Shown: piece by piece, positions 8,329-46,267 of the stretch
How positions within the stretch are numbered: the stretch's first letter is position 1
How the letters are laid out: each line of letters opens with the position of its first letter
Assembly (NCBI GenBank): GCA_003282155.1
Contig: QBZY01000003.1
Span: 27,115 to 91,114, forward strand
DNA length: 64,000 nucleotides
Direction of reading: 5' to 3'
Origin: Pelagibacteraceae bacterium AG-337-I02
GTDB lineage: Bacteria > Pseudomonadota > Alphaproteobacteria > HIMB59 > GCA-002718135
The notes under the pieces: generated by a model
The model's database searches: none
Seen by the model: the letters and a program-made list of their open reading frames with translations, nothing else
What the model was told of the DNA's origin: nothing
Position numbers and translations under genes: made by a program

Positions 8329-9261
8329 TTATTCAATAAGAATTTTATTTTCCTTATAACCTTTTGAGATAAAGTATGAAACCAAATTATTTACTTCTGT
8401 ATTTTCTAAAGGGCCAATAATTACATCATATTTGGAATTATTTTTTTCAGAAGTATATTTTAGATTATTTTCATAATTATGTAATACTGATCGAATACTC
8501 TCATAATTTTCAAACCCTATTACTCTTAAATATAATTTAAAATCGGTTATTTTTTCTGATTTTAACTCAATTGGTTTCTCTATAATTGTGATAGTATCAT
8601 CAGTTTCTAAAATTTCTTCAATTTCTTCAATAGATACAATATCTGTTGGTGCAGAAGAGATGGTTTCGTCAAAATTTTCTTCATTCAATGAATTTGCAAC
8701 ACTCTTCCATTGCTTACTGGCGTCTAAAAGTATTTCTACTTTTACTGTAGCTATTTTAGCTTTATAAAACCCAAGAAGTTGAGCTACTTTTCTTGAAACC
8801 TGAATAACAACTGCATTATCATCATGTCTATCTATTATTTTAACATTTAAAGAAAGTCCATTATCCAAGTTAGTGACCTTGACCATACTTGGAATAGGAA
8901 GAGTTTTATGTCTACCAAGTAATTCTGTAACTTTATTTGAATCATTATTTACAGTTTTAATATTGTGTAACTCCTTTCCATAAAAAGAAGAAAGTCCAAT
9001 TTCTGAGTAATTATAATTTTCCTCTGGGGTATAACTAACCCCTTCAATAAAATAGGGTTCACCAACATAATAAAAAATATTATCTTTTGTTTGTTTATTG
9101 TTTGATTGATTTTTTTCTTTTTTAACTTCTTTTTTATTATCGATTATTTCTTCAATTTTATTAGTACTATTTTCTACAACATCAGTAACATTATCAAGAT
9201 ATAATTCATTACAAGAAAATACAAATAAAAGAAAAATTAAACTAATTAGATATTTTATCAC
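8329..9261 (-). CDS. rlpA: septal-ring lytic transglycosylase RlpA-family lipoprotein with C-terminal SPOR domain
   Basis: Lipobox (LFVFSC). DPBB core: GLSSFYGKELHN...RHKTLPIPSMVKVTNLDNGLSLNVKIIDR. SPOR-like C-terminus. The start codon at 9259-9261 is GTG. Confidence 0.8.
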   Translation of the reverse strand: MIKYLISLIFLLFVFSCNELYLDNVTDVVENSTNKIEEIIDNKKEVKKEKNQSNNKQTKDNIFYYVGEPYFIEGVSYTPEENYNYSEIGLSSFYGKELHNIKTVNNDSNKVTELLGRHKTLPIPSMVKVTNLDNGLSLNVKIIDRHDDNAVVIQVSRKVAQLLGFYKAKIATVKVEILLDASKQWKSVANSLNEENFDETISSAPTDIVSIEEIEEILETDDTITIIEKPIELKSEKITDFKLYLRVIGFENYESIRSVLHNYENNLKYTSEKNNSKYDVIIGPLENTEVNNLVSYFISKGYKENKILIE

Positions 9262-10279
9262 TTAGAAGACCTACTGATACAGCGTAATATGATGAACAAT
9301 TATAATAAAGAATATTTTTATAATTAGGATATACTATGAACATTCTTCCATCTATCCCATCTGGCATTATTAATCTAGCTTCTAAATCATTCCTGATTGG
9401 TAAAGGATCTCCATTGATTTTTGTAAATCCTAATTTTGACCATTCTGATAGTTTTTTTGGAATTGATCTACGTTTAACTGCACCACAACCTTTGGGATTT
9501 ATTTGTTTTATAGAATCAAAAAATGATGAAGAAATATTTTTTGTAGGGAGTACTTCTCTTCCCCAAGTACTATCATTAGACCATGGATTTTTATCTAAAG
9601 AAGTTAAATAATTTGCAGTACTTGCAAAAGCATCTGCATAACTATTCCATATATCAATTCCATCACCGTCCCAGTCATATGCAGTTTCTAAAAAGGTTGT
9701 TGGTATCATTTGGGTCATACCCACTGCACCACCCCAACTCCCTTTTAATTCCCCACTAGGAGCAAGATTTTTATCTAAAATTTCAAGAGCTGCAAATAAT
9801 TGTTTTTTATAAAAATCACTTCTTCTTCTATCAAATGCAAGAGTTGTGATTGCAATTATTGAATTTATTTTTCCTTGATTTCTTCCATAATAACTTTCCA
9901 TACCTAATACAGCTACAATAAATCTGGGTTGTATTTTAAAATACTCTCCAATTTCTTTTAATATATCTTTATGTTTTTTAAAAAAATTTTTTCCAGCAAA
10001 TATTTTATCTTTGGTAATGGTATAAAATAAATATTCATCTAAAGTCATTGTTGATGTTGGCTGACAACGATCACGCATAATAATTTTACTTTGTGGCTTA
10101 ACATTATTTAAATGCTTTGAGATAGTATTTTGACTTATACCTATATCTAAAGCTTCTTTTTTAATAGTTGAAAGCCAGCTACTCCACTCATAATCAGTTG
10201 GCATTTTTGGTTTTTCACAATCAGTTGAATAGGCGTTAAATGATATAAATAAAAATATTAATACAAACCTAAAAATCAT
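9242..10279 (-). CDS. lytic murein transglycosylase (MltB/SLT_2 family)
   Basis: Signal peptide. Motifs GMESYYG and GAVGMTQMIPTTF are typical of MltB-like transglycosylases. Confidence 0.85.
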   Translation of the reverse strand: MIFRFVLIFLFISFNAYSTDCEKPKMPTDYEWSSWLSTIKKEALDIGISQNTISKHLNNVKPQSKIIMRDRCQPTSTMTLDEYLFYTITKDKIFAGKNFFKKHKDILKEIGEYFKIQPRFIVAVLGMESYYGRNQGKINSIIAITTLAFDRRRSDFYKKQLFAALEILDKNLAPSGELKGSWGGAVGMTQMIPTTFLETAYDWDGDGIDIWNSYADAFASTANYLTSLDKNPWSNDSTWGREVLPTKNISSSFFDSIKQINPKGCGAVKRRSIPKKLSEWSKLGFTKINGDPLPIRNDLEARLIMPDGIDGRMFIVYPNYKNILYYNCSSYYAVSVGLLSDKISN

Positions 10280-34738: not shown

Positions 34739-35860
34739 TTATACTACTAGTTTAAGACCGTAACCAGCTTTTTTAACTCTTGTTTTAAAATAATTTTTAT
34801 TAAATTTATTCAAGGTTGGCTTTGTATTTATTTGATTTTCGACTTTAATTCCAGCTTTCTTAATTGAATTAATTTTATTTTTATTATTTGTAATAAGATT
34901 AACTTTATTTATTTTTAATAATTTAAGTATTCTAGCTGCAATATTAAAATCTCTCTCATCATCTAAAAAACCAATATTATGATCGGCGTCTATTGTATCC
35001 ATACCTCTTGCTTGAAGAGAATAGGCTCTCATTTTATTAGCTAATCCTATTCCCCTACCTTCTTGTTCTAAATATAATATAATTCCACCATTATTTCTAA
35101 CCATGTAATTGATTGATTGATTTAATTGTTCACCACAATCACATTTTAAAGAATGAAAAATATCACCTGTAAAACAAGCTGAATGTATTCTTAAATTAAC
35201 AGATTTTTTATTTATTTTTTTTGGATTAACAATTATCGCTACATGTTTATCAGATCCAATATATGATTTAAATATTTTAAAATTAGAATTTTCATTTTTT
35301 GGTAATGGAACTTTTGCACTAGAAACTAATTTGATACTTTCACAAATTAATTCATTTTGCTTCAATAAATCTTTATAATCGAATATTAAAATTCCATTTT
35401 TAAATCCAAATTCATTTATATTTTTGTAATATTTTTTATTAATTTTTTTAAAAACTAGCGATGGTATCATTTTAGCATTTTTGGAAAGATCAATACAAAC
35501 ATTATGAAAATTTTTAGGTTTGAATTTTTTAATATTGGTAAATTTAATTACTTTATTATTGCTAAGAGGATTGACAAATAAATTTATTATTTGATTTACA
35601 TCTGTATTGGGATTTATCTCAAAATAAATATTGCTTTTAATATTCTTATTAAAAATTGATTGAGCTTTTTGTTTAGTAATAAGTAGATATTTTTCGTTAA
35701 TTAAGTGCTTATTGAATTGATTAAAAATTTTACTTTGGGAATGCTCTATATTAAAGAACATCCAATATTCCTTATTATTCTGAATTATTAACGGTCTTCC
35801 AGTCCTGAGTTCGTTAATTGCCCTATCTATTATAGTTCCTGTATTAGATTTGAAACTCAT
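34739..35860 (-). CDS. GTP cyclohydrolase II with a degenerate RibB-like N-terminal domain
   Basis: C-terminal half: RIHSACFTGDIFHSLKCDCG (Zn cysteines), LEQEGRGIGLANKMRAYSLQ, ITNNKNK. N-terminal half begins IDRAINELRTGRPLII but lacks the acidic DHBP-synthase active-site motif. The track start at 35896 is TTG. The first ATG is at 35858-35860. Confidence 0.8.
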   Translation of the reverse strand: MSFKSNTGTIIDRAINELRTGRPLIIQNNKEYWMFFNIEHSQSKIFNQFNKHLINEKYLLITKQKAQSIFNKNIKSNIYFEINPNTDVNQIINLFVNPLSNNKVIKFTNIKKFKPKNFHNVCIDLSKNAKMIPSLVFKKINKKYYKNINEFGFKNGILIFDYKDLLKQNELICESIKLVSSAKVPLPKNENSNFKIFKSYIGSDKHVAIIVNPKKINKKSVNLRIHSACFTGDIFHSLKCDCGEQLNQSINYMVRNNGGIILYLEQEGRGIGLANKMRAYSLQARGMDTIDADHNIGFLDDERDFNIAARILKLLKINKVNLITNNKNKINSIKKAGIKVENQINTKPTLNKFNKNYFKTRVKKAGYGLKLVV

Positions 35861-35896
35861 TGAAACTTTATATAGATATAATTGAAATAAAAACAA

Positions 35897-36730
35897 ATGA
35901 TTACATCAAAAAATATAGGAATTTTACTAGATTTTATAAATAATTCTAAAAAGAATAGTGATTTATATTTATTAGTTAAAAAAAATAGTATTTCTTTATC
36001 ATCAATAAGAAAAAGTAACTTTTACATAAAAAATAATAATCTGGAATCTAAAATTAAAATAAGTAAATTTTATCAATCAATCTTAAATATCCTTCTCCCG
36101 ATATTAAGAAAAAACAAAAAATTAGTTATAGCTCAGATAGGACAAAGTATAGATGGTAGAATTGCATTAAATAATGGAAATTCACATTACATAAATAATC
36201 CCAAGAGTATTATTTATCTACATTGTTTACGAAGTATCAGTGATGCAATTATTGTAGGCTCTAATACAATTAAAAAAGACGATCCCCTATTAACAACAAG
36301 AAAAATAAAGGGAACAAATCCAAAAAGAATTATTATCGATGGCAGTCTTTCGCTAAATAACAAATATAAAATATTTAATGACGGTAATGAAAATATAATT
36401 TTTACAAAAAGTAATAAAAATATTAGATTGAATAATTCAACAATAATAAGATTAAAAGAAAAAAATTTTACTAAAAACTTAATTACGCAAATAAAAAAAC
36501 TTAAATATAAAAATATTTTAGTGGAGGGAGGATCAAAAACTATTTCAGAGTTAATAAATAATAAATATATTGATATTCTTCAATTCATGATTGCCCCAAT
36601 ATTAATAGGTTCCGGAATTAATTCATTAAATTTAAAAGAAATTTCAAATCTCAATAAAGCTATGAGACCAAAACATAATTTTAATAAATTAGAAAATGAA
36701 ATTATTGTTAATTTATTTCTTAATAGCTAA
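35897..36730 (+). CDS. RibD C-terminal-domain (diaminohydroxyphosphoribosylaminopyrimidine-type) NADPH reductase homolog, no deaminase domain
   Basis: IAQIGQSIDGRIA, LHCLRSISDAIIVGSNTIKKDDPLLTTR, ILVEGGSKTISELI. About 70 aa of N-terminal extension with no motif I recognise. Confidence 0.7.
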   Translation: MITSKNIGILLDFINNSKKNSDLYLLVKKNSISLSSIRKSNFYIKNNNLESKIKISKFYQSILNILLPILRKNKKLVIAQIGQSIDGRIALNNGNSHYINNPKSIIYLHCLRSISDAIIVGSNTIKKDDPLLTTRKIKGTNPKRIIIDGSLSLNNKYKIFNDGNENIIFTKSNKNIRLNNSTIIRLKEKNFTKNLITQIKKLKYKNILVEGGSKTISELINNKYIDILQFMIAPILIGSGINSLNLKEISNLNKAMRPKHNFNKLENEIIVNLFLNS

Positions 36731-37501
36731 AAAATCTGTATTATTTAAAATAAATCTAGATTTTTTTTCTTTAATACATTTTAAACGAAATTTTAACCAA
36801 TCATCAAAGTTAAGTTTATTTTTTTGAATAATTTCTCTACAAAAATTTAAGAAATAAATTTGAAATTCAAAATTTTTACTAACATTCCATGTAGAGTCAA
36901 AAACATATGTTTTGTGAGTCCTTTTAAATACTTTATTTATTAATTCAGTGCAATTTGGGCCAACGGCCACTTCCCCTATTCCTTTGTCAGATTTTTGATC
37001 TTTATTAAAAATATTAAGAATTTTTTTATCATCCTTGTGTTTTGGAAAAAATTTAAAATTACCGTTATAATTTAAGGTAAAGTAGACAATTTCTGTATCA
37101 ACATTTAACTTATGAAAATTTTTAAACCATTTTTCTGGAATAATATCTAAAAAAGCAGATCCTGTAACTAAATTATAATCATTAAAACTTATTTTTTCTA
37201 GATTATTAATTACATCAACAATTTTAAAATTAGTTTTTTTAATTTTAGATGATAATTTAATATTTTTTTTAAAATAATTTGTTGATTGATGTGATATATC
37301 TACAAAAGACCAATATTGATAATTTGATAATCGTGACTTAAGAAATCTATAATTAGATCCAGCACCTGAACCTAAGTCAACTATTCTAATTTTTTTTTTA
37401 TTTTTAAAAAATTTATTAATTAAATATAATATTCTTTTGTTTCGTGAATTTCTATCGACACTTTCTCTAAGATTTAACCATTTATTTTGAAATTCATGCA
37501 T
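36713..37501 (-). CDS. class I SAM-dependent methyltransferase
   Basis: Motif I IVDLGSGAGSNY and post-I acidic residue (FVDIS). 262 aa. Confidence 0.7.
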   Translation of the reverse strand: MHEFQNKWLNLRESVDRNSRNKRILYLINKFFKNKKKIRIVDLGSGAGSNYRFLKSRLSNYQYWSFVDISHQSTNYFKKNIKLSSKIKKTNFKIVDVINNLEKISFNDYNLVTGSAFLDIIPEKWFKNFHKLNVDTEIVYFTLNYNGNFKFFPKHKDDKKILNIFNKDQKSDKGIGEVAVGPNCTELINKVFKRTHKTYVFDSTWNVSKNFEFQIYFLNFCREIIQKNKLNFDDWLKFRLKCIKEKKSRFILNNTDFLAIKK

Positions 37502-37502
37502 A

Positions 37503-38567
37503 TTAAATTAATTTAACAAATTTCTTAGCTGACTCTTGAGGAGTAAGAAGATATCTTTTATTTTTATGAATATTAATATTTAGTTTTTTAAAATTTTTTT
37601 TATTTAATATATTTTTAATAATTATATTTCTAAGATCATTTACTTCAAATTTTTTAAAATAAATAACACCCTTTTTTCCTAGTGTATTTAAGATAGTATT
37701 AGTAAAAAAGGTTATGATTGGCTTTTTAATTATTAATGCATTTGCTAAAGACATACCAAAACCTTCATATTTACTTACCGAAATGTAACAATCTGTTTTA
37801 GAATATAATTTAGCTAATTTTGTATCTGAAATAGTACCATGGAATTTTATTTTTCTGTTCATTGAATTTTTAGAAATAAATTTTTTGAGTTTTTTGTAAT
37901 AACCTATATCTCTTGTAGTATCACCAACAATTTCTAAAATAAAATGATCCAAAGGCTTTAAAACTTTTAATAAAAAAAAATAATTTTTTCTATTTATAAT
38001 ACTTCCACATGTTAAAAAATTAATTTTACTATTATTCTTAAAATTATATTTTACAAGTCTCTCTATACCAGGTTCAACTACAGAAATTTTATTATTTAGT
38101 ACCTTAAATTCATTTATTAATAAATTTTTTGTATTTTTAGATGTCACAATAAATTTGTTTATTTTTTTGAAATTTTCTTTTTCTAATCTTAAGAATTTTT
38201 TTGACCTTTGACCTTTAAATTCAAGATATAAAGGATGATGTATTAGCGCGATAACATTATAAGTTAGTATTTTTTTAAAAATTGAATACATTCCTTCTAA
38301 AGCTAATCCATCTATAATAATTTTTGAGTCAGGATCAATTTTATCTAAAATTTTTAAAAAATATTTTATATCGTTATTTGAAGGAAAAGGATAATTTTCA
38401 CTTAGAGCAATTGGTCTAATATCTATATCTCTTTTCTTTGCATATTCTAGGATATTTTTTTCATAAATGTATCCTCCAGTTTTTGCATTAATATTTCCTG
38501 GATATACAAAATAAATATAGGATTTATTTTTAGATAACCTCTTGTTCATATGATGCCCATGCAACAT
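37503..38567 (-). CDS. glycosyltransferase, GT4 (group 1) family
   Basis: C-terminal EGFGMSLANALIIKKPIITF (E-x7-E region) and GT-B-like length. An alternative ATG at 38549 is possible. Either start overlaps the upstream PTPS-like gene. Confidence 0.75.
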   Translation of the reverse strand: MLHGHHMNKRLSKNKSYIYFVYPGNINAKTGGYIYEKNILEYAKKRDIDIRPIALSENYPFPSNNDIKYFLKILDKIDPDSKIIIDGLALEGMYSIFKKILTYNVIALIHHPLYLEFKGQRSKKFLRLEKENFKKINKFIVTSKNTKNLLINEFKVLNNKISVVEPGIERLVKYNFKNNSKINFLTCGSIINRKNYFFLLKVLKPLDHFILEIVGDTTRDIGYYKKLKKFISKNSMNRKIKFHGTISDTKLAKLYSKTDCYISVSKYEGFGMSLANALIIKKPIITFFTNTILNTLGKKGVIYFKKFEVNDLRNIIIKNILNKKNFKKLNINIHKNKRYLLTPQESAKKFVKLI

Positions 38568-38928
38568 TTGATTCTTGCAAGGTTATTTTAATTTTTTTTA
38601 GAGATTTGTAATCATCAGAGAATTCATTTTTTAGTCTATTCAAGATCTTATTGCAAATATCCTCTGCTAAAAACTCTGTTGAGGTAATTTTTCCCTTAAA
38701 TTCATCAATTTCATCTAAATTTTGATAATTATATATTTTAAGAATATCTTTTAAAGTCGTGGACACTATTCCTAAATCCATAATTATATTGTATTTATTA
38801 AGTTTATCAGTGAAAAATTCAGCATCTACTAGATATGTAGCTCCATGCATATTTTGGGCAGGTCCAAATACTTCTCCAGGTAAAGAATGAGCTATTAGAA
38901 TATTTTCTCTTACTTTTATCGAATACAT
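38530..38928 (-). CDS. 6-pyruvoyl-tetrahydropterin synthase / QueD-fold protein, divergent active site
   Basis: By-eye alignment to E. coli QueD: IAHSLP vs AAHRLP, NMHGATYLV vs RLHGHSFMV, TSTEFLAEDI vs PTSEVLAKWI, ITLQESNVAWASY vs VMVKETCTAGCIY. Confidence 0.65.
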   Translation of the reverse strand: MYSIKVRENILIAHSLPGEVFGPAQNMHGATYLVDAEFFTDKLNKYNIIMDLGIVSTTLKDILKIYNYQNLDEIDEFKGKITSTEFLAEDICNKILNRLKNEFSDDYKSLKKIKITLQESNVAWASYEQEVI

Positions 38929-38930
38929 AA

Positions 38931-39890
38931 TTAATATTTAACTAAATGCATTATTGTATCCTTATTTTGAAGGATTTTATAGTAATCTTTTTCTAAATCA
39001 AAAAAATTACTTTCACTAGTAATTAATTTTTCTAATTTTGAATTTTTTAAAGATTTAATTGCTAATTTTAATCTCCCCTCAAAATCATATTTATTTTTCA
39101 TGTATTTTGGTATTTTAGATACCTGTGAGCTAATAATTTTTAATCTTTTAGAATGAAAATACCCGCCTAAGGCAACTTCTCCTTTATTTTTACCATACCA
39201 ACTAGCTTCTACTATTTTTCCTTCGATAGATAATTTTTCCATTAAAGAATTTAAAACTGTATAATTCGCTGTGGTGTTTATTGCTACATCTATTTTCTCA
39301 ATATTTCTTATATCAATAAAATTTAATCCTAAGTAATTGGCAATTTTTCTTTTATTTTTATTATTATCAAAAACATAAACATTTTTATATCCATTGATTT
39401 TAAAAAAAAATGCAGTTAATAATCCTACAGAGCCAAGCCCTACAATCAGAATTTCGTTATTACTTTTAGATTGAGCGTCCCAAAAGATATTAATTGCTGT
39501 TTCCATATTTGCAGTTAGAATGTATTTTCGCAAATTGCCTTTTGGTAGAAAAATTAAATTTTGAATAGAAATTTCATATAAATCCTGATGAGGATACAGA
39601 CTGAATATTTTTTTGTTTATATATTTATTTGGACCATCGATAATATTCCCAACATTTATATAACCGTATTTTATAGGTAAATTAAAAGAACCCTCTTGAA
39701 AAGGAGCTTTCATTAATTCAAATTGATCCTGACTTACGCTTTTAGATGAAACTAATTTTTCAGTTCCCTTGCTAATACCTGAGTATATAGTTTTAACTAA
39801 AACTGTTTTGTTATTTTTATTGTATACAAGTTTTTTTTGATAAATTTTAGCTTGTTTTTTTTTATCAATCCATAAAGAATAAGATTTCAT
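38931..39890 (-). CDS. medium-chain dehydrogenase/reductase (BchC-like subgroup, no catalytic-zinc ligands)
   Basis: SGISKGTEKL occupies the place of GxCGSDxH. Rossmann motif ILIVGLGSVGLL. 319 aa. Confidence 0.65.
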   Translation of the reverse strand: MKSYSLWIDKKKQAKIYQKKLVYNKNNKTVLVKTIYSGISKGTEKLVSSKSVSQDQFELMKAPFQEGSFNLPIKYGYINVGNIIDGPNKYINKKIFSLYPHQDLYEISIQNLIFLPKGNLRKYILTANMETAINIFWDAQSKSNNEILIVGLGSVGLLTAFFFKINGYKNVYVFDNNKNKRKIANYLGLNFIDIRNIEKIDVAINTTANYTVLNSLMEKLSIEGKIVEASWYGKNKGEVALGGYFHSKRLKIISSQVSKIPKYMKNKYDFEGRLKLAIKSLKNSKLEKLITSESNFFDLEKDYYKILQNKDTIMHLVKY

Positions 39891-39903
39891 AATTCACTTA
39901 TAA

Positions 39904-40671
39904 ATGTATAATAAAAAAATGCTAACAAACTTTTGGGAAGAATTAACAACAAATGAAATTAAAAAAATAAATAGAAAAACAGTTTTAATTTTCCCATTTT
40001 CATCAATAGAACAACATGGTCCTCATCTTCCATTAAATACTGATAAAAAAATTCTTGAAGGAATATTATTAGAATTCAATAAAAAATATAATTCAAATAA
40101 ATATTTAATTATGCCTGAAATATATTTTGGTTCAGCTGCTGAACATACTGATTTTGATGGAACTATAAGTATTGATTCATTGGAATTTATATCGCACTCT
40201 TTATCAATTTTAGAAAATGTATGTAAATTGAAATTTAAAAATATATTACTTTTAAATAGTCATGGTGGACAAATAAGCCATATGGATATTATTGCTAAAG
40301 AATTGAAATCAGAATTTAAGATAAATATTGTAAAAGGCACTTATTTTTTATTTGATCAATTTAAAGGAATTATATCAAGTAAAGAAAAAGATTTTGGTTA
40401 CCATGGTGGAGAATTTGAAACATCTATTATGTTATATTTATTTCCAAACCTTGTTAGGGAATCTAAAATTTCTAAACATAGATTATCTCCTGATTATTTA
40501 TCATCTAAAACCATTTCTTATGAGAAAAATATTAAGAAAGCTTGGACTAGTAAAGAATTAAGTAAAAGTGGAATTATTGGAGATCCTAGAAAATCCAATG
40601 CGCAAATAGGAAAAAAAATAATTGATAGACTAACACAAAAATTAAATAAAATAATAAATGAGATGTTTTAG
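39904..40671 (+). CDS. creatininase-family metal-dependent amidohydrolase (family includes archaeal ArfB formamide hydrolase and MftE)
   Basis: PFSSIEQHGPHLPLNTD, LLLNSHGGQ, GYHGGEFETS motifs. An alternative start at 39919 is possible. Confidence 0.75.
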   Translation: MYNKKMLTNFWEELTTNEIKKINRKTVLIFPFSSIEQHGPHLPLNTDKKILEGILLEFNKKYNSNKYLIMPEIYFGSAAEHTDFDGTISIDSLEFISHSLSILENVCKLKFKNILLLNSHGGQISHMDIIAKELKSEFKINIVKGTYFLFDQFKGIISSKEKDFGYHGGEFETSIMLYLFPNLVRESKISKHRLSPDYLSSKTISYEKNIKKAWTSKELSKSGIIGDPRKSNAQIGKKIIDRLTQKLNKIINEMF

Positions 40672-41462: not shown

Positions 41463-42359
41463 TTAATACAAATTATTTTCTACTAATACTTTTTTTACAG
41501 TTTCACCCATTACAGAAGGGTTTTTGGAAATTGTAACTCCACACTCTTTAAGAAGTTCAACTTTTTCTATTGCGCTTTCACCATAAGCTGAAACAATGGC
41601 ACCAGCATGCCCCATTACACGACCTTTAGGTGCAGTTAGTCCTGCTATATACGCAATTACTGGTTTACTCATATTTTCTTTAGCAAATTGTCCAGCTTCA
41701 ACTTCTTGTGGACCACCTATTTCACCTATCATTAAGACTGCAATAGTTTCATCATCATTTTCAAACTTTTCAATTATATCTCTAAAAGAACTTCCATTTA
41801 TAGGATCGCCTCCTATACCTACACTTGTTGAAACACCAATTTCCAAATCTTTAAGTTGTTGTGCAGCTTCATATCCCAATGTACCAGATCTACTAACTAT
41901 TCCTATTTTACCCTCTTTGTAAATATGACCAGGCATAATACCTAACATAGATTTACCAGGACTAATTATTCCTGCACAATTTGGACCGACTAATCCCATT
42001 TTTTTATCTTTTGGATATCTTCTCATATATCTTTTTATTTTAACCATATCATGAGAAGGAATGCCGTCAGTAATAGCAACACAAGTTTTAATACCCGCAT
42101 CAGCCGCTTCCATAGCAGAGTCTGCTGCAAATGCTGGAGGAACAAATAAAATTGATGTTGATGCACCTGTTTTATCTACAGCCTCTTTAACAGTATTAAA
42201 AACAGGAAGATTTAAATGAGTCATACCACCTTTACCAGGTGTTACCCCACCAACAACGTTTGAACCATACTTAATCATTTCTTCAGCATGAAAGCTTCCA
42301 ATTTTTCCAGTAAAACCTTGCACTAAAATCTTTGTATTTTTGTGAATTATTATAGACAT
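41463..42359 (-). CDS. mtkB: CoA ligase alpha subunit of the SucD family; by context malate--CoA ligase (malate thiokinase) alpha subunit
   Basis: SRSGTLGYEA and the phosphohistidine loop MGHAGAIV. 298 aa. Third gene of an overlapping mcl / beta subunit / alpha subunit string. Confidence 0.8.
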   Translation of the reverse strand: MSIIIHKNTKILVQGFTGKIGSFHAEEMIKYGSNVVGGVTPGKGGMTHLNLPVFNTVKEAVDKTGASTSILFVPPAFAADSAMEAADAGIKTCVAITDGIPSHDMVKIKRYMRRYPKDKKMGLVGPNCAGIISPGKSMLGIMPGHIYKEGKIGIVSRSGTLGYEAAQQLKDLEIGVSTSVGIGGDPINGSSFRDIIEKFENDDETIAVLMIGEIGGPQEVEAGQFAKENMSKPVIAYIAGLTAPKGRVMGHAGAIVSAYGESAIEKVELLKECGVTISKNPSVMGETVKKVLVENNLY

Positions 42360-42361
42360 TA

Positions 42362-43522
42362 TTATCCAAGAGCTTTTACTGCTTTATTCGCTGCATCTTC
42401 TAAAGTTGATGCTTCAATATAATTAATATTACTTTTTTTGAGTATTTCATTTCCTTTTTCAACATTAGTACCAGCTAAACGTATAACTAAAGGATGTTTG
42501 ATTTCAATTTTTGATAAAGCTTGAACAATTCCTTCTGCAACCCAATCACATCTGTTTATTCCTGCAAAAATATTAACTAAAATTACCTTAACTTTTGTGT
42601 CCATAGAGATTAATTTAAAAGCTTTAACTATTTTCTCAGGAGTTGCACCTCCGCCAACATCTAAAAAGTTTGCAGGCTCACCGCCAGCAAGTTTTATCAT
42701 GTCCATTGAAGCCATTGCTAAGCCTGCACCGTTAATAATATTACCAATATTTCCATCTAGGCTTACATAATTCATTCCTCTGTCAGAAGCATAAACTTCA
42801 TTTGAATTTTCTTGTGTTTTATCTCTAAGTTCTGCAATTTCATCTCTTCTAAACATTGCATTATTATCAAAACTCATTTTACAATCTAATGCTAATATTT
42901 CATCTTGTTGTGATACAACCAATGGATTAACTTCAACCATTGTTGCATCAAGCTCACTAAAGGCTTTATAGCAACCAATAATTGTATTTGCAGCTCTTGA
43001 AATCAATTTGGATTCAATTCCTAAACCAAAAGCTATTTCTCTTGCTTGAAATTGTTGAATACCAACTGCTACCTCTATTTTAGATCTTATAATTGTTTCA
43101 GGCTTTTCTTTTGAAATCTCTTCGACACTCATTCCACCTTCTGTTGAAGCTACAACCATTATACTTTCTGAAGATCTATCAAACACTAAGCCTAAATATA
43201 ATTCATGTTTGATATCTGTTGCTTCTTCAATATAAATTCTATTTATTATCTTACCTTCTGGACCAGTTTGGTTTGTAATTAATTTTTTACCTAACAATTT
43301 ATCAGTTGCATCAGCAACTTCTAACGGAGAATTACATATAATAATTCCTCCCGCTTTACCTCTAGCACCAGAGTGAACTTGCGCTTTTACAACCCATTTT
43401 GAACCACCAATTTCTCTTGCTTTATTTTCTGCATTTTCTGGACTATAAACAATACCACCAGTCGGAATTTTAACACCAAAATCAGACAATATTTTTTTTG
43501 CTTGATATTCATGTATATCCAT
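42362..43522 (-). CDS. mtkA: CoA ligase beta subunit of the SucC family (ATP-grasp); by context malate--CoA ligase beta subunit
   Basis: MDIHEYQAK, GGEPANFLDVGGGA. NIFAGINRCDWVAEGI differs from E. coli SucC (NIFGGIVRCDLIADGI) and matches my recollection of methylotroph MtkA. The start overlaps the stop of the malyl-CoA lyase gene by 1 nt. Confidence 0.75.
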   Translation of the reverse strand: MDIHEYQAKKILSDFGVKIPTGGIVYSPENAENKAREIGGSKWVVKAQVHSGARGKAGGIIICNSPLEVADATDKLLGKKLITNQTGPEGKIINRIYIEEATDIKHELYLGLVFDRSSESIMVVASTEGGMSVEEISKEKPETIIRSKIEVAVGIQQFQAREIAFGLGIESKLISRAANTIIGCYKAFSELDATMVEVNPLVVSQQDEILALDCKMSFDNNAMFRRDEIAELRDKTQENSNEVYASDRGMNYVSLDGNIGNIINGAGLAMASMDMIKLAGGEPANFLDVGGGATPEKIVKAFKLISMDTKVKVILVNIFAGINRCDWVAEGIVQALSKIEIKHPLVIRLAGTNVEKGNEILKKSNINYIEASTLEDAANKAVKALG

Positions 43523-44460
43523 TACTTGCTCTCAATTAGTTTATTTATATTTACAATATTTTCAGCCATTCTTGCAGATGCTGCATCGATCATTCTTCCA
43601 TCAAGCTGAGCAGCACCCTTTCCTTCAGCGGCTGCTTTTTCTAATTCTAATAATATTCTTTTTGCTTTATCTATTTCTTCTTTGGGAGGAGAAAAAACTT
43701 CATTAGCAAGATCTATTTGCGATGGATGTATTGCCCATTTACCTTCAAAACCAATTGCTGCAGCTCTTTTTGCTGCATCAAGATATCCTTCTTTGTCATT
43801 AAAATCACCAAAAGGTCCGTCTATTGCTCTTAAGCCATATGATCTACAAGTCATTACTAAAGTTGATAAGCCATGATGCCATTGATCACCAGGGTAATCA
43901 GGATTTAAACCTCCTATGACAACAGTTCTTGCTCGCATACTTGCTGCATAATCTGCAACTCCAAAGTGTAATGCCTCTAGTCTTGAACTTGATGTTGCGA
44001 TTGATTGAATATTAGACATTCCTAGTGCTGTTTCAATTAAACATTCTAAACCTATTCTATTTTCAAATTTTTTATTTTGTTCAATTTGATTAAGCATACA
44101 ATCAACCATATATACATCAGATGATGAGCCTACCTTTGGAATTAATAATGTATCAACCCTATCGCCGACTTCTTCTACAATTTCAATCACATCACGATAC
44201 ATATAGTGTGTATCCAAGCCGTTAATTCTTATAGAAATTGTTTTACCTTCTTCTCTCCAATTATATTCTTTTATTGCATTAATAACATTTTTTCTTGCAT
44301 AAATTTTATCATTTGGGGATACTGCATCTTCTAAATCTAAAAAAATATAATCAGCATTTGATTTTAATGCTTTTTCAAACATCTTTGGATTAGAGCCAGG
44401 AACTGCCAATTCACTTCTGTGTAATCTAGATTTAGCAGGTTTATAAAATAAATGGCTCAT
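43522..44460 (-). CDS. mcl: L-malyl-CoA / beta-methylmalyl-CoA lyase (HpcH/HpaI-CitE family)
   Basis: Long colinear identity by eye with methylotroph Mcl: RLHRSELAVPGSNP, IFLDLEDAV, IRINGLDTHYMYRDV, LIETALGM, FGVADYAAS, IDGPFGDF, GFEGKWAIHPSQIDLANEVF. Confidence 0.85.
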   Translation of the reverse strand: MSHLFYKPAKSRLHRSELAVPGSNPKMFEKALKSNADYIFLDLEDAVSPNDKIYARKNVINAIKEYNWREEGKTISIRINGLDTHYMYRDVIEIVEEVGDRVDTLLIPKVGSSSDVYMVDCMLNQIEQNKKFENRIGLECLIETALGMSNIQSIATSSSRLEALHFGVADYAASMRARTVVIGGLNPDYPGDQWHHGLSTLVMTCRSYGLRAIDGPFGDFNDKEGYLDAAKRAAAIGFEGKWAIHPSQIDLANEVFSPPKEEIDKAKRILLELEKAAAEGKGAAQLDGRMIDAASARMAENIVNINKLIESK

Positions 44461-45667: not shown

Positions 45668-46267
45668 ATGTATATTTATGATTTTATCCAAGGATTAATA
45701 ATTGGAGGAACATTAATAATTGCTATAGGACCTCAAAATTTATTCGTAATACAACAAGGGCTTAAGAAATCTTATGTTTTTACAGTTACCTTATTTTGCA
45801 GTCTATCAGACAGTTTACTTATAGTAACCGGAATATATATATCTAATTATATTGTCCAAATTAATCCAAGTATCATAGGAATAATAAAAGTATTAGGTGG
45901 AATTTGGCTTATATTTTATGGTTTAAATAAAGTTAGAAAATTAAATCAAATTAAAGATATGAATAAAGAATTAAAAATAATTAATGAATTCGGAAAAGTA
46001 TTAATTACCTTATTCCTTATTACATACGCAAATCCTCATGTTTTTTTAGATACAGTTATTTTAATTGGATCATTATCAACAAATTTTAATGATCAATTTT
46101 CATTTGGTATTGGAGCGATTGCAGCTAGTTTTTCGTTTTTCTTTTTTTTGGGATATATGTCAAAGTTTTTATCAAAATATATTTATTCAAATAAAACTTG
46201 GTTTTGGATTGATCTAATTATTGGTCTGCTAATGATTAGTTATGGAATATATTTTATAATTTTCTAA
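45668..46267 (+). CDS. LysE/ArgO-family basic amino-acid exporter
   Basis: Colinear with E. coli ArgO by eye: FIQGLIIGGTLIIAIGPQNLFVIQQG vs [26 protein letters not shown], and NPHVFLDTVILIGSLS vs NPHVYLDTFVVLGSLG. Confidence 0.8.
   Translation: MYIYDFIQGLIIGGTLIIAIGPQNLFVIQQGLKKSYVFTVTLFCSLSDSLLIVTGIYISNYIVQINPSIIGIIKVLGGIWLIFYGLNKVRKLNQIKDMNKELKIINEFGKVLITLFLITYANPHVFLDTVILIGSLSTNFNDQFSFGIGAIAASFSFFFFLGYMSKFLSKYIYSNKTWFWIDLIIGLLMISYGIYFIIF

Follow-up and report, generated by a model that had tools for sequence, protein, structure and literature searches.

The three genes described here lie on the minus strand of a 64,000-nucleotide stretch of the genome of the SAR11 bacterium Pelagibacteraceae bacterium AG-337-I02 (contig QBZY01000003.1, positions 27,115 to 91,114; the whole stretch is hereafter the window) and are predicted to encode an L-malyl-coenzyme A (CoA) lyase and both subunits of a malate thiokinase. 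Gene 1, mcl (43522..44460, 312 aa), is assigned to the lyase by its PF03328 domain, a Protein Data Bank (PDB) match and its catalytic residues. Gene 2, mtkA (42362..43522, 386 aa), is assigned to the beta subunit of malate--CoA ligase, also called malate thiokinase (Mtk), by the NCBIfam model NF010647, a tree and a motif, NIFAGINRCDWVAEGI, read in the gene 2 translation at residues 317-332 (42527..42574, minus strand). Gene 3, mtkB (41463..42359, 298 aa), carries the Pfam CoA_binding and Ligase_CoA domains of the alpha subunit. All three open reading frames are full length relative to their family profiles. Mtk and malyl-CoA lyase (Mcl) are serine-cycle enzymes that together convert malate, in an ATP-dependent step, to malyl-CoA and then to glyoxylate and acetyl-CoA. 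SAR11, the most abundant heterotroph of the ocean, is thought to lack this cycle.

The TAA stop codon of mcl and the ATG start codon of mtkA have one base in common (...AAG TAATG GAT...), giving a 1-nt overlap, and mtkA and mtkB are separated by a 2-nt gap (...GGA TAA TA ATG...). These junctions confirm the spacing given in an earlier, model-made account of the window's letters (the sequence-only reading), which had also taken the genes to be translationally coupled. The overlap is real but not distinctive: the window is 96% coding, gaps of -4 to +5 nt occur in 18 of its 39 same-strand neighbour pairs, and 6 of these pairs share the identical 1-nt overlap. Because close packing is typical of the window, gene coupling by itself tells little, and the operon reading draws on gene order, since mcl-mtkA-mtkB recurs in most related loci, both in SAR11 and outside it (Hyphomicrobium, Mesorhizobium, Aminobacter and gammaproteobacterial metagenome-assembled genomes (MAGs)). 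A glycine riboswitch is known on the SAR11 malate synthase, and an RNA element was sought upstream of mcl by analogy; Rfam returned only two tRNAs across the window, and the spacer in front of mcl is no longer than 57 nt. A promoter and terminator scan was uninformative, promoter-like sites being fewer than in shuffled sequence.

The GC content of the three genes (0.32-0.35) exceeds the mean of the window's genes (0.265, sd 0.038), so that the block is numerically more GC-rich than its neighbours, as had been remarked from the letters. GC at third codon positions (GC3) is 0.134-0.150 against a window mean of 0.145; this background level confines the excess to codon positions 1 and 2. Equally GC-rich conserved genes occur elsewhere in the window (TrpB-like, 0.347; M20 peptidase, 0.332; serC, 0.326). 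The GC excess reflects amino-acid composition and not foreign origin, and horizontal transfer deduced from it was ruled out by the background-level GC3 and these equally GC-rich genes.

The lyase is an HpcH/CitE-type protein (Pfam HpcH_HpaI, 1.3e-38) that aligns end to end with the malyl-CoA lyase of Methylobacterium extorquens (PDB 5ugr, E=1.1e-115, 63% identity) and, at 47% identity, with Mcl1 of Rhodobacter sphaeroides (PDB 4l9y, E=4.3e-84). Residues for catalysis and Mg binding, described by Zarzycki and Kerfeld as Asp42, Arg76, Glu141, Asp168 and Asp299 in R. sphaeroides numbering (PMC3832036), have their aligned counterparts in D42, R78, E143, D170 and D292 of the window protein. These five columns are invariant across 22 aligned sequences, save for one gap, from an incomplete sequence, at the lid column. 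At this last, lid position the malyl-CoA thioesterase cluster carries Glu (PMC3832036); the window enzyme has Asp there, as would suit a lyase rather than a thioesterase. The colinearity with methylotroph L-malyl-CoA lyase noticed in the sequence-only reading is borne out by the end-to-end alignment.

For the lyase, no bacterial Mcl model was matched, and the only Mcl model, the haloarchaeal NF041626, scores 139.6 bits against a cut-off of 500; the best NCBIfam matches are RipC and CitE, both below threshold (188 and 175 bits; cut-offs 375 and 443), and the Joint Genome Institute (JGI) label is 'citrate lyase beta subunit'. Together with the promiscuity described for malyl-CoA lyases (PMC3832036), these matches are what favours a role on other substrates, in which another dicarboxylate would give rise to the beta-methylmalyl-CoA or citramalyl-CoA handled by the module, as in a propionyl-CoA/glyoxylate or itaconate-type route. 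We regard such a role as very unlikely: RipC and CitE are only distant relatives, set against 63% identity to the serine-cycle Mcl of M. extorquens, the lyase is partnered with an Mtk-type ligase in serine-cycle clusters, and genes of the ethylmalonyl-CoA, methylaspartate and 3-hydroxypropionate pathways occur in none of the loci examined. By homology, the JGI name for the lyase is wrong and the protein is a malyl-CoA lyase. Its loop is short (DYPGDQW), about 14 residues shorter than that of the M. extorquens enzyme. This deletion was considered as a SAR11 peculiarity and ruled out, the short loop being present also in Hyphomicrobium, Aminobacter, Mesorhizobium and others; judged by the alignment, it is a trait of the subfamily.

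The beta subunit of the ligase passes the malate--CoA ligase beta equivalog model NF010647 (624.1 bits, cut-off 604) and also exceeds the cut-off of the SucC model NF001913 (519.9 bits, cut-off 370), at 104 bits below its score on the Mtk model. It is 61-65% identical to its Hyphomicrobium, Aminobacter and Ruegeria orthologues and 47% identical to Escherichia coli SucC. A HMMER scan of 1.84 billion cluster representatives returned one full-length match (60% identity, 513 bits), followed by a drop to 401 bits and 48%; among the next seven representatives in the ranking, the four that carry a source name are all named succinyl-CoA synthetase.

A neighbour-joining tree of beta subunits (67 sequences, 387 columns, 100 bootstraps) places the window protein in an Mtk-type clade (100/100) with other SAR11, Hyphomicrobium, Aminobacter, Mesorhizobium, Ruegeria, Sulfitobacter and several MAGs, apart from SucC of E. 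coli, Francisella and Campylobacter and from database-named SucC. Within it, the SAR11 beta subunits form a subclade of their own, also at 100/100. Aligned with NIFAGINRCDWVAEGI of the window MtkA, E. coli SucC reads NIFGGIVRCDLIADGI. The pattern N[IV]FAGINRCDW occurs in 86 of 87 translated MtkA-type sequences, the exception being an incomplete read-out (L059), and among 150 representatives it is confined to the Mtk type, while pattern-matching SucC show N[IV]FGGIx[RKN][CT][DET]. Since NRCDWVAE served as one of the scan patterns, part of the invariance seen there comes from ascertainment. The literature on the succinate-binding residues of SucCD yielded nothing usable for placing the FAGIN motif in the structure.

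In the alpha subunit, the GHAGA phosphohistidine loop (MGHAGAI, His251) is retained and aligns with that of SucD; the subunit is 66-77% identical to the alpha subunits that adjoin MtkA in non-SAR11 loci, as against 54-55% to SucD of solved structure. Its best NCBIfam match is the SucD model, NCBIfam having no separate Mtk alpha model, and ligase matches in the PDB are limited to SucCD-type relatives. A protein identical to the beta subunit is found on 44 contigs; NCBI lists it as 'malate--CoA ligase subunit beta [Pelagibacteraceae bacterium]', and JGI assigns the same function. The ligase already has its correct name in both PGAP and JGI annotation.

If the ligase were a divergent succinyl-CoA synthetase, with the tricarboxylic acid (TCA) cycle as its sole or additional role, the adjacent lyase would say little about its substrate. 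The SucC cut-off passed by the beta subunit and the SucD model preferred by the alpha subunit are compatible with this, as is the finding that no SucC or SucD paralogue occurs in the window or in 88 related loci (~1.4 Mb). Against these stand the advantage of 104 bits for the Mtk model, the fully supported clade apart from named SucC, the clade-specific FAGINRCDW and the lack of mdh or sucAB anywhere in the 64-kb window. The first freshwater SAR11 (LD12) isolate is described with a complete TCA cycle (PMC6018831), and no named SAR11 isolate appears among the matches listed for the module, so a standard sucCD is expected elsewhere in the genome. We consider a TCA-cycle role highly improbable. 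Assignment of the ligase to the malate thiokinase type, and not to the TCA enzyme, is supported by the family model, the bootstrapped tree, the motif and the gene neighbourhoods in other taxa. On this point the sequence-only reading was upheld, as it was in recognising from the beta-subunit motif a departure from E. coli SucC towards MtkA. Separately, an AT-rich representative (P0128) was considered as a SAR11 SucC and ruled out; it belongs to Rhodobiaceae/Hyphomicrobiales.

Comparison with a close relative (L007, dS about 0.22-0.25) gives mcl a dN/dS of 0.05, mtkA one of 0.004 and mtkB one of 0.011; the flanking genes range over 0.025-0.13. These ratios indicate that all three genes are functional and tightly constrained.

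Among the matches listed, the module is carried by at least about 53 SAR11-type species representatives, in four placements. Type A, that of the window, lies between an SRAP-DUF4864 pair and a histidine phosphatase with a pterin-like cluster (at least 24 loci). Type B lies between hisE and a HIT gene, with the mcl start overlapping the hisE stop by 4 nt (at least about 20 loci, among them L035 at 8785-9992); the type B module is probably co-transcribed with the histidine operon, as the overlap suggests. Type C is embedded in a methylated-amine island, with mgsA, gmaS and a soxB-like gene upstream and orf115, tdm and tmoX downstream, and was found with both flanks in at least 8 loci, all single-cell or MAG contigs (L049 4429-15291, L029 1226-18488, L025, L026, L037, L042, L043 and L045), and with one flank on 3 short contigs (L038, L041 and L047). 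In three type C loci (L029, L037 and L049), a phosphoenolpyruvate (PEP) carboxylase gene, ppc, abuts mtkB (Ppc 944 bits, cut-off 815). L049 additionally has a divergent aminotransferase gene resembling sga (serine-glyoxylate aminotransferase) upstream of mcl and a Tdm of 1168 bits (cut-off 1100). In type D, at least 3 loci, mtkAB follows a TauD-family gene and no mcl lies within 10 kb.

The type D loci (L053 9060-12059, L055 and L052) are of SAR11-type lineage with a GC content of about 0.34, and their mtkAB, 83% identical to the window's, comes directly after the TauD-family dioxygenase gene; the ligase may there serve another partner or substrate. Two contigs bear other taxonomic labels: L038 (Dokdonia sp. 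MAG) and L052 (Gammaproteobacteria MAG) carry SAR11-type mtkA with 88% and 83% identity, respectively. L052 has a GC content of 0.345 and branches within the SAR11 clade, and L038 has SAR11-type mcl, mtkB and orf115 as well; in both of these public MAGs the contig is probably SAR11 DNA that was mis-binned. A neighbour-joining tree of the three proteins concatenated, which carries no support values, sets the window type on a deep branch of its own and does not separate type B from type C, a topology that fits one old acquisition followed by relocation.

In our assessment, the three genes are probably an operon for Mcl and an ADP-forming MtkAB that, in SAR11, would consume malate and supply glyoxylate as an arm of a serine-cycle-like route, a role that we infer from enzyme families and gene context. 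MtkAB would convert malate, ATP and CoA to (S)-malyl-CoA via a phospho-histidine on the alpha subunit, and Mcl would cleave malyl-CoA to glyoxylate and acetyl-CoA. Glyoxylate would be transaminated to glycine, which in the serine hydroxymethyltransferase reaction would act as acceptor for methylene-tetrahydrofolate to give serine, while acetyl-CoA would be recycled via the TCA cycle and isocitrate lyase. The module would thus form the glyoxylate-regenerating arm of the route.

Both reactions are reversible in principle, and Mcl has been described as reversible (PMC3832036). Run in reverse, Mcl would condense glyoxylate (e.g. from glycolate) with acetyl-CoA and MtkAB would form malate and ATP, replacing malate synthase, the role that the sequence-only reading had proposed. 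By a rough subtraction of textbook free energies this direction is slightly exergonic under standard conditions, one ATP saved per glyoxylate would suit an energy-limited oligotroph, and no serine-cycle partner in the window speaks against it locally. With glyoxylate at micromolar levels and ATP/ADP ratios as in cells, however, a similarly rough textbook-based estimate makes it endergonic. M. extorquens uses Mtk, whose reaction is called energetically demanding, only in the malate-consuming direction and meets its need for malate from malyl-CoA with an up-regulated thioesterase (PMC2948502). Malate synthase G, isocitrate lyase and ppc are reported in marine SAR11 outside subclade III (PMC6018831; PMC5029164), leaving no gap for a substitute to fill. 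The malate-consuming direction is favoured because the informative neighbourhoods in relatives, with ppc, the sga-like gene and the one-carbon (C1) island, are those of a glyoxylate-regenerating arm, because M. extorquens turns to a thioesterase and not to a reversed Mtk, because malate synthase G is reported in these SAR11 and because the ATP-yielding direction is estimated to be unfavourable in cells. The same observations count against the earlier proposal, and we consider reverse operation unlikely.

Several points weigh against the malate-consuming, glyoxylate-supplying arm. Assignment of the SAR11 copies rests on sequence families and gene context, and the tree contains no characterised MtkA, so that its biochemical anchor is the curated NCBI model together with gene context. 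A direct link to C1 units appears only in related SAR11 genomes; the neighbours in the window's own lineage are uninformative, and the 64-kb window has no tdm, gmaS, ppc, sga, hpr or glycerate kinase gene, that is, no functional partner locally. At least 3 unrelated contexts of the module exist in SAR11, so placement in the C1 island could be incidental. Marine SAR11 outside subclade III normally carry a PEP carboxylase gene (PMC5029164), and its adjacency to mtkB may be partly historical. Finally, hydroxypyruvate reductase (hpr) and glycerate kinase genes were found in none of the SAR11 loci examined. The SAR11 module is split from hpr in all loci examined, and ppc and/or sga are kept only in a minority of genomes.

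Tentatively, the glyoxylate-supplying arm might belong to a complete route. A subset of SAR11, possibly including this lineage, might combine Mcl-MtkAB with Ppc, a serine-glyoxylate-type aminotransferase, GlyA and isocitrate lyase into a serine cycle that assimilates C1 units from trimethylamine N-oxide (TMAO), methylamine and other methylated osmolytes; we hold this to be possible, though doubtful. Cultured subgroup Ia SAR11 are described as oxidising C1 compounds and methyl groups for energy and as lacking C1-assimilation pathways (Sun et al., PMC3160333), and in a SAR11 pangenome, an agxt-type transaminase is among the differentially distributed, strongly selected genes of offshore genera and was tied to glycine/serine supply (PMC12636525). 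If such a cycle operates, these SAR11 would be facultative methylotrophs rather than 'methylovores', and the carbon budgeting of methylated osmolytes would change. A conserved module that in some genomes lies in a TMAO/methylamine island with ppc and an sga-like gene gives C1 assimilation in part of SAR11, or at the least self-supply of glyoxylate and glycine, a genetic basis that can be tested. The enzyme pair itself is already known and the ligase is already named by annotation pipelines; the added interest is the arrangement with the C1 island, ppc and sga in related SAR11. We found no paper on an Mcl-MtkAB module in SAR11 among open-access papers and preprints. For annotation, the SucCD-like pair in these genomes should not be read as the TCA enzyme, nor the adjacent 'citrate lyase beta' (JGI) as anything but a malyl-CoA lyase.

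The immediate neighbours of the module in the window are genes for an SRAP peptidase, a DUF4864 protein and a histidine phosphatase and the pterin-like cluster, and the rest of the window is housekeeping in character (gyrA, ssb, uvrA, sodB, secDF, metG, mfd, recG, htpG and serA-like/serC). Besides mdh and sucAB, glcDEF, glcB and aceA are absent from the 64 kb. Single-cell genomes from the surface ocean (AG-/AH- series) contain near-identical loci, which together with the NCBI name of the identical beta subunit assign the window to SAR11. The pterin-like block beside the module (34739-40671) is kept in all window-type loci and encodes a GTP cyclohydrolase II-like protein, a RibD_C-only reductase, a methyltransferase-like protein, a GT4 glycosyltransferase, a PTPS/QueD-like protein, a zinc alcohol dehydrogenase-like protein and a creatininase/ArfB-like hydrolase. 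The sole model passed in this block is the RibA subfamily model NF001591, by the GTP cyclohydrolase II-like protein (216.7 bits, cut-off 148); the block resembles a pathway for making a cofactor of pterin or flavin type, possibly a glycosylated one.

Three further features of the window stand apart from the module. A minus-strand gene at 46254-49304 encodes a 1016-aa fusion of an aminoglycoside-phosphotransferase-type kinase, Peptidase_M23 and a class-III aminotransferase, kept at 93-97% in closely related window-type loci and at 76% in L024. At 49285-52880, genes for a pseudouridine kinase-like protein (PfkB) and a pseudouridine-5'-phosphate glycosidase-like protein (Indigoidine_A) adjoin those for a nucleoside hydrolase and a PhyH-family dioxygenase, and may form a small nucleoside-salvage cluster. 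A four-gene minus-strand run at 58666-63382 comprises serA-like, serC, DUF1015 and TrpB-like pyridoxal phosphate enzyme genes; the serA-like product (323 aa) has no ACT domain and scores 323.5 bits (cut-off 454), SerC scores 584.8 (477) and the TrpB-like protein 698.9 (366). The run points to serine synthesis by the phosphorylated pathway, in a clade whose dependence on glycine/serine is known.

Among the closest counterparts of the module are the sga-mcl-mtkA-mtkB-hpr(-ppc) clusters of Hyphomicrobium, Mesorhizobium/Aminobacter and gammaproteobacterial MAGs, which share the three-gene unit and the short-loop Mcl at 61-77% identity over the three proteins. An AGXT-family serine-glyoxylate-type aminotransferase gene precedes the unit in Hyphomicrobium (L069), Mesorhizobium (L074) and a gammaproteobacterial MAG (L071); a glyoxylate/hydroxypyruvate reductase-like gene comes after the unit in L071 and L074, followed in L071 by the PEP carboxylase gene. 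This is the classical serine-cycle neighbourhood (for the enzyme list, see PMC2948502).

The biochemical reference is MtkAB with MclA of M. extorquens AM1 (EC 6.2.1.9 and EC 4.1.3.24), which belong to the same two enzyme families: the Mcl proteins are 63% identical with identical catalytic residues, the window beta subunit passes the malate--CoA ligase equivalog model, and the window alpha subunit keeps the phosphohistidine loop. The window differs from AM1 and from roseobacters in its mcl-mtkA-mtkB order and short DYPGDQW loop, both as in Hyphomicrobium, Aminobacter and Mesorhizobium. It differs from AM1 further in that no sga, hpr, ppc, mtdA or fch adjoins the module and in that the SAR11 host is a streamlined oligotroph. 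Succinyl-CoA synthetase (SucCD of E. coli, 1jkj, and of Francisella, 6mgg) has the same fold, with ATP-grasp and CoA-ligase domains, and the same phosphohistidine mechanism, at 47% identity for the beta and 54-55% for the alpha subunit; in contrast to SucC, the window MtkA falls in a separate clade and has FAGINRCDW in place of FGGI[VMLT][RK]CD, and its ligase genes adjoin a lyase gene instead of mdh/sucAB. The known natural case of Mcl working in the condensing direction is the 'apparent malate synthase' of R. sphaeroides, composed of Mcl1 and Mcl2, a lyase and a malyl-CoA thioesterase. Mcl1 and the window lyase are 47% identical and have the same active site. In R. sphaeroides the reaction is pulled by the irreversible thioesterase, with Glu at the lid; the SAR11 module, by contrast, comes without a thioesterase paralogue, and its lyase has Asp.

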